NCBI GenBank assembly: GCA_951406725.2
Contig: OX597818.1
Span: forward strand, 48,112,001-48,176,000
Source of the DNA: Octopus vulgaris
Taxonomy: Eukaryota
Direction: 5' to 3'
Length of the DNA stretch: 64,000 bases
The notes beneath the pieces are model-generated. The model saw only the letters and a list, made by a program, of their open reading frames with translations. It ran no database searches and was not told the DNA's origin. A program made the translations under genes and the position numbers. Position 1 is the first letter of the stretch, and each line of letters opens with the position of its first letter. Below are positions 12,701 to 44,052 of this stretch, piece after piece.

Positions 12701-14341
12701 CACTTAAAGCTCCACGAGGCTCCGGCAGGGAGTGGTGGCAACCCCTGTTGTTCTCTTTCACCCCAACTTTCTCTCACTCTTTCTTCCTTTTTCTTGAGTA
12801 ATGCTGCGATGGACTGGCGTCCTGTCCAGCTGGGGGGAATACATATGCCATAGAAACTGGGCCCATGAGCCTGGCTAGGCTTGAAAAGGGTGCATAAATA
12901 AAATAAAACCACTTATCTATGTTGAGTAGTACATTCTTTATCTGGGAAAAGCGTGGCACTTACAGTCATTAACCTATGGTGTTTCCTGGTATGAATAAGG
13001 GACTGTAATCTCACTTCTAGCACCATGGGTAAGTGTCTTCTACTATAGCCTTAGGCCAACCAAAGCTTTGTGAGTGGATTTGGTAGACGGAAACTGAAAG
13101 AAGCCATGTTGATCATGATAATGTTATTTTTATGTTGTGCAATGATCACGAGCAAGTTATTGAATATTTAAGAGGGATGGATTTCTTTTCTTTTTGAGTT
13201 AAAAGAAAAAAATTCAATTTAAAAAATGTTTCATCAAAATAATTCTCATCTCCAACTTTGAAAACATATCTCTGCAAAAGACATTTTAAAAAAATGTAAG
13301 GAAGCAAAATCTCAAGAATTGGAGTACTGAATCTTTGACAAAGACAATATACGCCATGGAAACTGGTTAGGCTTTAAAAGGGCGCAATGGCCCAGTGGTT
13401 AGGGCAGCGGACTCGCGGTCGGAAGATCGCTGTTTCGATTCGCAGACTGGGCGTTGTGTGTGTTTATTGAGCGAAAACACCTAAAGCTCCACAAGGCTCT
13501 GGCGACCCCTGTTGTACTCTTTCGTCCCAACTTTCTCTCAATCTCTCTTCCTGTTTCTTGAGTAATGCTGCGATGGATTGGCGTCCCGTCCAGCTGGGGG
13601 GGGGGGGGGGGGCACATACGCCACAGAAACCGGGAAACCGGGCCCACGAGCCTGGCTAGGCTTGAAAAGGGCGCATAAAAAAAAATAAATAAAACTTATT
13701 TTAAAGATGAAAGGCAAAGTCAACCCCGGTGGAATTTGAACTCAAGACGTAAAGTCGGAAGAAATGCCGTTAAGCTCCCCTTATTTTTTCCGGCACCATA
13801 GCGATTCTGGCAGTTTGTTATCCCTCGGGCAAAGGCAATATTAAAAGTTATAAGAAAATGTTGAAATATGGAGTTATCTCCCTTTACATTTTATTATTAG
13901 TACACAACGATTATAGTCGTCAATACAGTAATCCCTTGACTATCGCTGGTGTTACGTTCCAAAACCCCCGCGATTGGTGAAAATCCACGAAGTAGAAACA
14001 ATACTGTACTGTATATATATATATATATATATATATATATATATATATATATATGTATATATATGTATAAGGACACCGTGACGGTGTCGAGCCTTTCTGG
14101 TGACGTCGATGTTCGCCTGGGGCTAAATGCAACAGTAACACCCCCACCACCCTGCCCTGTCCCTAGCCATATTCAGATGGCTTTAGTCCCTTATGTTATC
14201 GAGCAGTTACTGTCTATATCTCTTTTAGAGAATTATTATTGCTTTCGAACAGATTTTCGAAATCAGCAAATGTATTTTGCTTGAAAATCTATATATGAAT
14301 ATCCTGCAGAGTGAGAGTTCGTCGAGGAAGCGGAAGCCTAC

Positions 14342-14387
14342 CACACGCCGACGATAGGCAATACACCTTGAAACCATGGTCCGTGTG
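14342..14387 (+). ncRNA. Minimal type-I hammerhead ribozyme motif, copy 1 (variant core CCGACGA)
   Basis: CACACG-CCGACGA-t-AGG(caataca)CCT-t-GAAA-C(CATG)G-TC-CGTGTG. Helix I is extended by GAAGCGGAAGCC/GGTTTCCGCTTC. Predicted cut after C14381. Confidence 0.75.
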
Positions 14388-14701
14388 TGGTTTCCGCTTC
14401 ATCGGGGAATTACCTCCCTTTGCAGGTTAAGGACACCGTGACGGTGTCGAGCCTTTCTGGTGACGTCGATGTTCGCCTGGGGCTAAATGCAACAGTAACA
14501 CCCCCACCACCCTGCCCCGTCCCTAGCCATATTCAGATGGCTTTAGTCCCTTATGTTATCGAGCAGTTACTGTCTATATCTCTTTTAGAGAATTTTTATT
14601 GCTTTCGAATAGATTTTCGAAATCAGCAAATGTATTTTGCTTGAAAATCTATATATGAATATCCTGCAGAGTGAGAGTTCGTCGAGGAAGCGGAAGCCTA
14701 C

Positions 14702-40259: not shown

Positions 40260-42060
40260 CTTGGCTCATTTGTTTCGTTTCTCATTTACAACCCCAGCTG
40301 GAGCTGCAGGATGAACAAACTGACTGATTTTATCATACCTTTTCGTAGACTACCTCAGTACAAATGATAAAGGCCGTATCTTCATGGCTGGTGACTTCAG
40401 TGGGTATGTTGGGTAACAGTTAGGTGACTTCAGTGGTGTGCATGGAGGTTAAGGGGTTGGTTCCCTAAATGCGGAGGTAAGAAGGCTACTGGAGTTCTGT
40501 AATGCTAACAACCTAATGGTCTGCAACACTAACTTCAGGAAACTACCCAGTCTCCTGGTTACTTATCAATCTGGTGGCCACATGAGACAGATTGACTACA
40601 TTCTCACTAGAAAGTGGAATAGATGGCTGCTCATAAATGCAGAGAGTTTCACGGGGAAGGAATATATTCTTCAGCATAGGTTGGTCATTAGCAACTTTGG
40701 ATTTGAGGCTTGAAGGGTTCCAAGAAGCAAACCAGTTTGGAAAAGGAAGATTTGGAAGCTTAAGGACACATCGAATAGTTTGAGCTTTAGAGACATCCTA
40801 ACTGAAGCATTCAACAAAGCGGAGATGATAGGGACACCAAACATAGAGACCAACTGGAAATTACTATGAGGCAACTTACTGAGGGCCACAGACTAAATCT
40901 ATGGCTGGTGCTTAGCCCCAACCAGACCTAGGGTGACATGGTAGTGGAACAGTGAAGTAGACAGGGCCATAAGAGCAAAGAAACAGGTCTGTAAGAGTGG
41001 AGGTAGCGGAGAACTATACCAGGCAGCTGGAAGAGAAGCTAGGCAACAGGTATATTTTAGGGCGGCGAGCTGGCAGAAACATTAGCACGCCGGGCGAAAT
41101 GCTTAGCAGTATTTCGTCTGCCGCTACATTCTGAGTTCAAATTCTGCTGAGGTCGACTTTGCCTTTCATCCTTTCGGGGTCGATAAATTAAGTACCAGTT
41201 ACACACTGGGGTCGATGTAATTGACTTAATCCGTTTGTCTGTCCTTGTTTGTCCTCTCTGTGTTTAGCCCCTTGTGGGTAGTAAAGAAATGGGTATATTT
41301 AGCTAGGGAAGAAACAGAAAAGAAGAAGTCTGTCATTGTTCTGTAACATGAGGACCAGAGGCATGAGGTTAGTCAAACAAAATTGTGATGTATGTTTCGA
41401 TGGATGATGGTACTCTTGTACTTAGTGATTCTGCAAAGAAAAAGGCATTGTGGTGCTATTATGAAGGGCAGCTAAATGTAGAGAATGCATGGGTGAAGGT
41501 AAATCTTCTTAACATGAGCACAACGGAAGGACCAACTATCCAAGTTGATAGCAGCATGATAGATAAAGCAATTGAGGATATAAAGACAGGAAAAGCCCCT
41601 GGCCCATCAGGAATTACTGCTGAGACGCTTAAAATATCTGGCAGAGTGAGATGTGGCTTAGTCATCCGTATAATTAATCAGGTTGTCCAGGAAGAGGTCA
41701 TACCCAATAACTGGTGTAGCAGCATTATAGTCAACTGCTAAAAGGTAAAGAAGATGCCTTAGGCAGAAGTGATTACAGAGGTATCAAATTGCTGGATGTG
41801 CAATGCCAGTGTGCATGTATGACATGCACACTGGCATTGTTTTGAGTGAAAAATTGAGTGTAAGAGGCATCAGATGTTGTGTGCAAGAGAAAAGACTGCA
41901 CTGGTATGGTCATGTGATGCATATGGATGAAGACAGCTGCATAAAGAAGAGCCGATCTCTAAATGTGGTGGGGGAACCTCAGCAAGAGGAAAACATGGGA
42001 CAAAGTGTTGAGAGATGATTTTCAGGTGTTGAGCTTCATTGGGTTGATGACAAAGGACCA
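40260..42060 (+). mobile_element. Degenerate RTE-clade LINE (APE endonuclease to RT, internally deleted) with a nested SINE B at about 41060-41290
   Basis: AGDF, LMVCNTNF, QIDYIL, KAPGPSGITAE.LK and RLHWYGHV motifs with stops. Confidence 0.85.
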
Positions 42061-43630
42061 AAACAACAGGTGCATTGTTGTGCCTGAGAAGACACATCCA
42101 GCCAAGTAAAATCAAGGCCGTAAAGGCATGTCCTTTACATCCATGCACCACCACCCTACAAACAATCAGTCCCTGGCAGACCTCTTCCCCCATGTTCCAT
42201 CTTCCCAACACCTCCTTTCCCTCCACCCATGCTCACCACCCTCAGTATTCCCCTCTCCTCTGTCTCCCACTCACCCTTGCTATCCTACCTGCACACAAAT
42301 GTCTTGTCAAATCTCTTCCCCACAGCATACCCTTCTAATCCCCACTCCATCTTTCACTCTCCATTTGCAGTATTGTAAACTTACTCATCCTCTCAAATCC
42401 CCTTCACTATATACACCTCCCTGTAACTTGAGTCTATACCCCATCATATGTACACCATCTTATTTCTGCCTCTCTCTCTTTTTCCACCTGAGATATAGCC
42501 ATGTTTCTCCTCTACTACTAGACCCCTGTTTCTGTCCCTCAATAGTACACATCAGTTGAGACTGGGAGAAGTGAGGGGGAACTCTTGTCTTTCAAGTTAC
42601 TTGGTGGCCTCACTGCTGCCAGTACCACTTAAAAAGCACCCAATACACTCTGTAAAGTGGTTGGCATTATGAAGAGCTGTAGAAACGATGCCAATGCAAA
42701 CAGTAGAACTTGAGGCAGTCCAACTTTTACCAGCATGGAAAGCAGACATTAAATGATGATGATGATGATTTATTTGGAATTATTTTTCGTATAGTCTCCT
42801 ATTTTCCCAAGCTTGTTCTTGAGGTACAGGGCCTATTTAACTGTAAGACAGGAAGACTGGTTCATCCAACATCAAAGCATGTTCACACCCAATAGTCCTG
42901 TGTGACACATGTCTAAAGGCCATCCCTCCTCTGAGCCCTTATGTTTCAGCCACAATACCATCTGCTAGTTGACCCATAACTAGTGCTCTTGACAGGTACT
43001 AATAGTCTAAACACTGCTAGTATTAATTGTCTTTCATCTGAAATATATGTTTGTATAAGGCGGCGAGGTGGCAGAAACATTAGCACACCGGACGAAATGT
43101 TTAGTGGTATTTTGTCTGTTTTTACATTCTGAGTTCAAATTCATCCGAGGTCGACTTTGCCTTTCATCCTTTCAGAGTCAATAAATTAAGTACCAGTTGC
43201 ATACTGGTGTCGATCTAATCGACTGAACTCCCTCCCCAAAAATTTCAGGCAAGCTGGCAGAAACGTTAGCACACTGTGCGAAATGTTTAGTGGTATTTTG
43301 TCTGTCTTTACATTCTGAGTTCAAATTCCACCGAGATTGACTTTGCCTTTCATCCTTTCGGAGTCAATAAATTAAGTACCAGTTGCATACTGGGGTCGAT
43401 CTAATCGACTGACCTCCCTCCCCAAAAATTTCAGGCCTTGTGCCTAGAATAGAAAAGAATATATGTTTGTATGTCTTCACAATAAATACAAGGTCAGAAT
43501 ACAAATGTTAGCAGTCTACTAATAGATTTAAAAGTATGTTTTTTAGATGAAGGTTAAACATCAGCATTTAGCTTGTACAAGAAAGATCAATACTATATGT
43601 TACTTTATATATATATACATATATATATAT

Positions 43631-44052
43631 GTAATGATAAATCTCAGAGCGAGTTATAAACAATGGCGGTAACACATTGTGACGCATATTTGCCATTTGA
43701 ATATGGCTAACCCCTAAGGGTGGATGCTACTGTAGTTTGTAGCCCCAGGAAGATATCTCCTCCAGCTGGCTATAGACACACTATCTGTGCCCTATCAGTA
43801 TTTGTGAAGGGAAGTCATCCTTCCCGTCTTCAACTATGATTGTCACACGCTGATGATAGGTAAACACCTTGAAACTCGAGTCCGTGTGTATCATAAGTTG
43901 AAGACAGGAAGGATGACTTCCCTTCACAAATACTGATAGGGCACAGATAGTGTGTCTATAGCCAGCTGGAGGAGATATCTCCCTGGGGCTACAAACTACA
44001 GTAGCATCCACCCTTAGGGGTTAGCCATATACAAATGGCAAATATGCGTCAC
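43631..44052. mobile_element. Fold-back element in (TA)n: inverted arms 43679-43840 / 43890-44052 with a hammerhead between them
   Basis: Arms are reverse complements with a handful of mismatches/indels; TA-rich runs on both sides; homologous to the 14-kb unit. Confidence 0.85.
43844..43888 (+). ncRNA. Minimal type-I hammerhead ribozyme, canonical core, in a TADA3 intron (sense)
   Basis: CACACG-CTGATGA-t-AGGT(aaac)ACCT-t-GAAA-C(TCGA)G-TC-CGTGTG. Predicted cut after C43882. Confidence 0.85.

Follow-up and report, generated by a model that had tools for sequence, protein, structure and literature searches.

Two related hammerhead ribozyme elements in (TA)n tracts of Octopus vulgaris share a 3' terminus and resemble a non-LTR retrozyme and an inverted Penelope-like pseudo-LTR

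Non-LTR retrozymes of metazoans (LTR, long terminal repeat) are described as non-coding tandem repeats with one type I hammerhead ribozyme per unit, at least two consecutive motifs and a self-paired monomer; their units measure 170-400 nt, those of mussels 350-390 bp (PMC7229834), and their origin has been traced to pseudo-LTRs (pLTRs) (bioRxiv 10.64898/2026.07.22.740005). In Penelope-like elements (PLEs), pLTRs can stand head to head with a palindrome at the junction and an extension, or tail, on one arm (PMC3846280). The purified PLE protein of the anole nicks and extends both strands of AT-rich DNA, starts internally at two adjacent sites that define the genomic tail, and needs neither target homology nor ribozyme cleavage (PMC11167929). 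In O. vulgaris, PLEs make up 6.83% of the genome and fall into 190 families, 31 of them listed as active (PMC13282606). Here we analysed 64,000 nt of the O. vulgaris genome (assembly GCA_951406725.2, contig OX597818.1, positions 48,112,001 to 48,176,000; the window, in whose numbering all coordinates are given), which contains a tandem array near 14 kb and an inverted repeat near 43 kb, both with hammerhead ribozymes.

On our best reading, the 14-kb array is a non-LTR retrozyme and the 43-kb element is an inverted pLTR with a 48-nt tail. Both would carry an ancestral PLE terminal module, inserted by a (TA)n-targeting Penelope-like enzyme that starts inside the RNA, an account to which we assign a probability of roughly 0.78. 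A relaxed two-strand motif scan revealed three type I hammerheads in the window, all on the + strand. The two elements are composed as follows (hammerhead positions are numbered according to standard usage).

14012-14067, no strand: (TA)n tract bordering the array on its left; the final TA of this tract overlaps TAAGG in the unit
14068-14962, + strand: tandem array, 2.5 copies of a 360-bp unit; both ends lie inside the unit
14302-14338, + strand: upstream arm of the extended helix I, pairing with 14389-14427; repeated at +360
14342-14387, + strand: hammerhead copy 1; its core is CCGACGA (U4C), helix II has U.U at its base, and a 2-bp helix III bears the loop CATG
14702-14747, + strand: hammerhead copy 2, identical to copy 1
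14742-14962, + strand: post-ribozyme module of 221 nt, homologous to the arms of the 43-kb element and containing four hairpins at matching positions; the shared terminus is 14962
14963-15552, no strand: (TA)n/(CA)n tract bordering the array on its right
43606-43630, no strand: (TA)n tract, left flank of the inverted element
43631-44052, no strand: head-to-head inverted repeat with unequal arms and one ribozyme at the hinge
43631-43840, - strand: long arm, without a ribozyme core of its own
43631-43678, - strand: 48-nt extension present on the long arm only, a candidate PLE tail; 43631 is the shared terminus
43844-43888, + strand: 43-kb hammerhead at the hinge; canonical CTGATGA/GAAA core, U.U at the base of helix II, loop III TCGA
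43890-44052, + strand: short arm, stopping 170 nt past the cleavage site
44053-44081, no strand: (TA)n tract, right flank of the inverted element

The two elements' relationship, proposed in a preliminary description of this DNA, depended on alignment outside the ribozyme, and that alignment was significant. Downstream of helix I, 122 of 179 columns were identical (68%); the global score was 90.5 against a shuffle mean of -7.6 (z score 9.2) and the local score 98.5 (z 15.6), neither of which was reached in 2000 dinucleotide shuffles. The best of 563 other tiles of the window scored 50 and 54.5, compared with 98.5. Taken alone, the 3' part gave z 9.0, and its last 30 nt aligned without gaps (21/30 identical; 1 of 2000 shuffles as good); the 5' spacer by itself aligned weakly, with 9 of 2000 shuffles as good. 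With BLASTN, only the ribozyme was significant (39/47 identical, E 6e-7), everything outside it having E values of at least 0.08. The view that the flanks are unrelated, taken from BLASTN alone, was overturned by the full alignment with shuffles.

The array ends at 14962 with ...ATTATTGC, followed by (TA)n, and the minus-strand end of the long arm at 43631 reads ...ATCATTAC. Both stop at the same terminal base; its distance from the cleavage site is 221 nt for the array and 219 nt for the long arm. The motifs and ends quoted in the preliminary description were found in the sequence, and its claim of equivalent termini held. The sequence of the 360-bp unit extends beyond the point where the last array copy stops, and the short arm of the 43-kb element ends 48 nt before the shared terminus. 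We infer that 14962 is a start site of reverse transcription; the array would end in mid-unit at the same base as the long arm because copying starts internally. These comparisons support common ancestry of the two elements and of their 3' terminus.

The post-ribozyme region also appears to share a fold. Its consensus structure had an energy of -20.75 kcal/mol compared with -10.3 +/- 3.2 kcal/mol for column shuffles that preserve conservation; its energy was better than that of 299 of 300 shuffles, and its conservation index better than that of 295 of 300, in a test that depends on the alignment and on two sequences. Among four hairpins at matching places, picked by eye, one showed the changes C-G to A-U and A-U to G.U, and another had an invariant 5-bp stem. 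The terminus of the array lies in the 5' arm of a stem-loop.

The elements had been described as members of one family. That assignment falls short of the 80% rule for a single family of transposable elements: identity was 68% outside the ribozyme and 39/47 within it, and the cut-offs in use are 80% and 90% (PMC13282606; bioRxiv 10.64898/2026.07.22.740005). The array copies have three differences among them and the 43-kb arms three substitutions and one indel between them, so that each element is about 98-99% identical internally. Since identity between the elements is 68%, their divergence predates both insertions and points to two source lineages. We therefore regard them as two related lineages or families, each recently active, rather than one.

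All four outer junctions, belonging to both insertions, adjoined (TA)n, which bears out the expected flanks at these two insertions. Elsewhere in the window, (TA)n occupies 463 bp in 19 tracts (0.75%); by a hand calculation, two independent insertions would fall into such a share about 6 times in 100,000, a figure to be read with the reservation that tracts may grow after insertion. The 5'-truncated junction of the array has a 2-nt microhomology (the TA of the flank and of TAAGG in the unit). In the supplement of PMC8557442, a preference for (TA)n is listed for 26 of the 27 Hydra rows as well as for Hydra and Naiad families of octopus.

Cleavage is predicted after 14381, 14741 and 43882. A covariance model made from the two ribozymes recovered the same three sites as self matches at 78-83 bits, the next score in the window being 10.3. 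The Rfam model Hammerhead_1 (RF00163) matched 43844-43888 over its full length below threshold (21.9 bits against a gathering score of 34, E 0.0023). The whole-window Rfam scan listed no hammerhead among its 54 matches, which comprised tRNA, one weak snoRNA and microRNA models on simple or inverted repeats. No further family copies were found in the window by nhmmer with a three-row profile (five self matches, next E 0.57). An exact-pattern scan for the ribozymes in prokaryotic genomes gave 0 matches, an expected result of little weight.

In both ribozymes, proximal helix I comprises 6 bp, helix II has U.U at its base, and helix III is 2 bp long and capped by a palindromic loop; the 14-kb helix II lacks its fourth pair. 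Helix I, said to be identical in the two, is so in its proximal 6 bp and differs in its distal part. The 3x1 internal loop reported as common to both (UAC x U and UGU x U) forms part of the minimum-energy structure computed for the 43-kb ribozyme; the 14-kb ribozyme shows it only under a constraint on the core or in a fold 0.6 kcal/mol above the minimum. The exchange of loop III from CATG to TCGA was real, with p about 0.11 when considered alone (by hand count, 9 of 81 all-different four-mers are palindromes). Selection on ribozyme structure, likewise proposed earlier, is supported as conservation, not covariation: stems and invariant core were changed at 1 of 32 positions and the remaining sequence at 7 of 14 (Fisher p 0.0004).

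Helix III and its palindromic loop would allow a double hammerhead through ACCATGGT and ACTCGAGT, an arrangement of the kind described in PMC4209133. Co-folds of two copies through an 8-bp intermolecular helix III gave -64.0 against -59.8 kcal/mol and -33.3 against -24.0 kcal/mol. As the ribozyme needs a partner copy for helix III, the solo 43-kb copy should cleave poorly according to these models. The core of the array is probably slow as well; U4C is a natural variant that is reported to be much slower in vitro while remaining viable in a viroid (PMC3088659). As the change is found in both array copies, their template had it.

The array has a tandem unit within the 170-400 nt range and a type I hammerhead in two consecutive units, is non-coding, and is strongly self-paired: the 360-nt monomer folded with z -6.0, and none of 100 shuffles was as good. 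By its sequence it corresponds to the definition of a non-LTR retrozyme (PMC7229834; bioRxiv 10.64898/2026.07.22.740005), a class also defined by expressed linear and circular monomer RNA. Unlike retrozymes as described in the available text of the same two sources, it has U4C, a fixed internal 3' terminus and (TA)n flanks. Axolotl HHR_Amex2 has the U.U at the base of helix II and the 2-bp helix III seen in both octopus elements. Helix I of the array continues for about 40 nt as an imperfect duplex, in which four transitions are all compatible with G.U on the + strand and none gives A.C. This wobble polarity points to pairing at the RNA level (p about 0.06); none of the differences between the 43-kb arms is of the G.U type, unlike those of the array helix.

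The three differences among array copies are at 14158, 14235 and 14250 and their equivalents; at the two of these sites that all three copies cover, copy 2 is the odd one out, copies 1 and 3 being alike. This agreement would fit a 720-nt dimer template and has a probability of 1 in 9 by chance. A conserved reading frame marking the start of a PLE open reading frame (ORF) was considered and rejected: the array frame is open for 77 codons, and the 43-kb arms are stopped in all three sense frames. The unit frame 14372-14641 gave no Pfam match.

The 43-kb element, with one ribozyme and inverted arms, does not have the tandem direct units of a retrozyme. It shows the architecture of PLEs, in which pLTRs lie in tandem or head to head with a one-sided tail, here of 48 nt. 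With PLE pLTRs it shares head-to-head arms, a junction palindrome, an extension on one arm, a hammerhead in the repeat and an end not homologous to the target, and its module of about 220 nt compares with pLTRs of 193-218 bp in Adineta PLEs (PMC3846280, PMC8557442, PMC11167929). Unlike PLE pLTRs, the arms have no ORF between or beside them, and the junction palindrome is the extended helix I of the ribozyme itself. The piece may be either non-autonomous or the truncated end of a full PLE.

We infer the following enzymatic steps. The module would consist of a dimer-type type I hammerhead and about 220 nt of structured RNA ending at a fixed start site of reverse transcription. A PLE protein with reverse transcriptase (RT) and GIY-YIG domains, supplied from elsewhere, would bind the module and nick a (TA)n tract, and copying would begin at an internal point of the RNA, about 220 nt beyond the cleavage site. 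At 14 kb, a circular or multimeric template would be run round 2.5 times and the 5' end joined through the 2-nt microhomology; either a circle or a linear multimer could have served. At 43 kb, priming would occur on both target strands, from two start sites separated by 48 nt; the resulting pair of cDNAs would then meet by way of the extended helix I, whose strands are complementary, so that a single ribozyme remains at the hinge and just one arm has a tail. The + copy retains the 3x1 loop and an indel on the upstream side, so copying would have gone beyond the cleavage site. Simple fold-back of one cDNA could not make the second arm the longer one unless sequence was lost later. The two-strand priming is the least certain step when set against an antisense template, and we give it slightly less than an even chance.

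The alternative at that step keeps the same PLE machinery and has the 43-kb element copied from an antisense or palindromic template, by self-priming or from a minus-strand transcript of an older inverted copy; only the long arm would then have a true start site, and the end of the short arm would be a random 5' truncation. Self-priming has been proposed for head-to-head pLTRs with junction palindromes (PMC3846280), the three substitutions and one indel between the arms are as expected of an aged palindromic source, and the offset of 48 nt exceeds the usual tail length. Nevertheless, the one-sided extension is the published signature of a tail, for which two start sites operate in vitro (PMC11167929), and the junction of the short arm has no microhomology with the flank, unlike the truncated 5' end of the array. 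We consider this origin quite possible, though we would wager against it, and the doubt touches the two-strand priming step only. The mobiliser itself could instead be a microsatellite-associated non-LTR long interspersed nuclear element (LINE), moving the module as LINEs move short interspersed nuclear elements (SINEs) that bear the 3' end of their partner. A common 3' end, together with microhomology at a truncated 5' end, is a general sign of target-primed reverse transcription, Dong-R4, Tx1, RTE and CR1 families are active in O. vulgaris (PMC13282606), LINE-like RT fragments occur in the window, and PMC7229834 leaves LINEs possible as partners of retrozymes. A LINE is nonetheless improbable here: the terminus lies inside a tandem unit whose template continues beyond it, no poly(A) or simple-repeat tail belonging to the element can be distinguished from the flank at either end, arms in head-to-head order with overlapping sequence and a tail are features of PLEs, the LINE-borne ribozymes reported in the literature available to us are HDV-like, and the module has no second match in the window.

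An origin at the DNA level would make the 43-kb element a foldback, or a structure like a miniature inverted-repeat transposable element (MITE), and the array a local satellite arising from slippage or from unequal exchange; the ribozyme would then be a passenger undergoing decay, and (TA)n would have formed later. Local DNA amplification of pLTR pieces is discussed in bioRxiv 10.64898/2026.07.22.740005, and the array core is indeed mutated; but local slippage would not produce the same end base in an independent element that is 32% diverged, the 43-kb arms differ in length, conservation favours stems and core, and the long helix of the array has its wobble polarity of four G.U to no A.C. We judge this origin very improbable. 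Chance likeness or convergence of two unrelated hammerhead repeats, to which the confinement of BLASTN significance to the ribozyme and the weak 5' spacer might be credited, has next to no probability and is refuted by a collinear end-to-end alignment (z 9-16, and 9.0 for the 3' region alone) with control tiles scoring far lower.

Several observations weigh against the Penelope-like account. Rfam gave no match for the first 14-kb ribozyme, the unconstrained minimum-energy fold of an array copy is not a hammerhead, and the sole change in the core, U4C, is in both array copies. None of 11 stem pairs covaries, all being invariant between the only two sequences compared, too few for such a count to be informative. 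Only two insertions are available, many (TA)n tracts of the window also adjoin other repeats, and target-site duplications are unreadable within (TA)n. The tail measures 48 nt compared with a published 30-40, and the start sites of the anole PLE lie about 85-90 nt past the cleavage site (PMC11167929), compared with about 220 nt here. Pfam searches with the 150 longest of 272 window frames (non-repetitive, at least 60 amino acids) detected no GIY-YIG domain and no PLE ORF, and a motif scan of 571 window frames detected no PLE ORF. Hydra-1_Obim, an octopus member of the Hydra clade, has a different ribozyme sequence and ends about 35 nt after it (by eye; PMC8557442), and by eye the 3' ends of Hydra-1_Obim and Naiad_Obim/Ovul, among four octopus consensi compared, had no likeness to the module. 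Three of four short motifs were unmatched in the PMC8557442 supplement, where line breaks could hide matches, and the fourth hit an unrelated Naiad coding region.

Neither element contains an ORF with RT and GIY-YIG; this excludes autonomy, not mobilisation in trans, and neither is an autonomous PLE. The mobilisation by a (TA)n-targeting Penelope-like element put forward in the preliminary description thus agrees with the anatomy (tandem, head-to-head, one-sided tail) and with the literature; because no RT plus GIY-YIG ORF was attached to the elements or found among the scanned window frames, the mobiliser is deduced and not seen. In the same 150 frames, Pfam matched PIG-V, one RVT_1 fragment, one DUF6451 fragment, a Mos1 helix-turn-helix domain (HTH) and three weak candidates.

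Like the octopus elements, PLEs of the Hydra clade have a canonical hammerhead near the 3' end, insert into (TA)n and occur in octopus (PMC8557442). Helix II is closed by U.U in 14 of 26 Hydra motif rows of that source (by eye), as in both elements here; as a sign of Hydra this is a weak pointer, the axolotl retrozymes having it too, and any link to the clade would come from RNA and target features and not from protein. Octopus Naiads resemble the elements in (TA)n targeting, in tandem and inverted insertions and in tails; unlike them, they lack canonical hammerheads (PMC8557442), and the 3' ends of their octopus consensi are dissimilar by eye. Hydra-1_Obim and the octopus Naiads were considered as partners, and neither by-eye ends nor short motifs supported them.

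The module may also be a portable PLE cis-element with two fixed internal start sites, from which inverted pLTRs arise by two-strand priming joined through helix I. In insertion, the ribozyme would then have a structural role as a splint and not a catalytic one, and an inverted insert with a little flank could circularise into a new retrozyme. We hold this extension to be unlikely as a whole. The 360-nt unit does have about 40 nt of older, lineage-specific inverted sequence upstream of the ribozyme, with a TATATAT remnant beyond. The 105 nt upstream in the array are not an inverted copy of the 43-kb arm (z -1.4), and, past proximal helix I, they match the array's own downstream sequence weakly (z 1.5; 171 of 2000 shuffles as good). 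Since these comparisons are weak, the idea that the retrozyme was born from an inverted insert is no more than a lead.

The window is octopus DNA, with a long PIG-V exon at 4650-5849 (- strand) whose protein is 91% identical to the Octopus bimaculoides homologue. An exon at 56061-56321 (+ strand) is 99% identical over 79 amino acids to an O. vulgaris transcriptional adapter 3 record, on which the gene name TADA3 is based; PDB searches with two TADA3 exons gave no significant match. The 14-kb array lies within the first coding intron of PIG-V (5850-22854, between exons 22929-22855 and 5849-4650), antisense to the gene, and the 43-kb element lies in the TADA3 intron 38187-51918 (between exons ending at 38186 and starting at 51919), its ribozyme being sense to the gene. 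The solo ribozyme is thus sense to its host gene and the two-copy array, a potential double hammerhead, antisense. Such orientations fit selection against cutting of host pre-mRNA, with n = 2. In TADA3 pre-mRNA, the 43-kb arms would pair as a 160-bp duplex, a possible editing substrate; RNA editing is heavy in cephalopods.

An inverted duplication of ordinary intronic DNA, 1229 nt long (11779-13007 and 16049-17277) with 1013 nt free of mismatches, lies on either side of the 3-kb stretch in which the array stands together with the 590-nt TA/CA tract; either a very recent rearrangement or an artefact of assembly may account for the duplication. The sequence at 13926-14011, left of the TA tract of the array, has no second copy in the window, and its start presumably resembles a Tigger/pogo-type terminal repeat. 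An AT-rich, MITE-like palindrome at 19356-19826 has 223-nt arms, 95% complementary, and a 25-nt spacer; it contains no ribozyme, and its matches extend over only 12 nt. Other features are a tRNA gene at 59713-59784 (- strand; Rfam 66.8 bits), transposon fragments (Mos1-type HTH at 9364-9645, - strand; DUF6451 at 18334-18894, + strand; RVT_1 at 54075-54560, - strand) and an abundant, dispersed SINE-like repeat of about 180 nt, which also forms short tandems (e.g. 6641-7184 and 43062-43436) and carries no hammerhead motif.

The anatomical features found here are already published for PLEs and retrozymes. A description of this octopus pair was not found in the literature searched, most subscription journals lying outside its scope; Repbase, Dfam or the O. 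vulgaris repeat library may hold it. In the same search, PMC8557442 was the sole relevant work found on octopus hammerheads. Possible novelty is confined to the family as such, to a fixed internal terminus common to a retrozyme array and an inverted insert, and to the position of the hinge in helix I.

The elements add a cephalopod pair of retrozyme and pLTR to the catalogue, and their chief use is as a test case, the tandem and inverted structures of PLEs and their microsatellite bias being called unexplained in PMC8557442. A single terminus kept by two young lineages through 32% divergence would mark the sequence read by the enzyme. The pair further suggests that internal initiation, as demonstrated in vitro for the anole PLE, is used by retrozymes. 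If the ribozyme does act as a splint and inverted inserts do circularise, the octopus elements would offer a testable route both to the inverted repeats of PLEs and to the birth of retrozymes.

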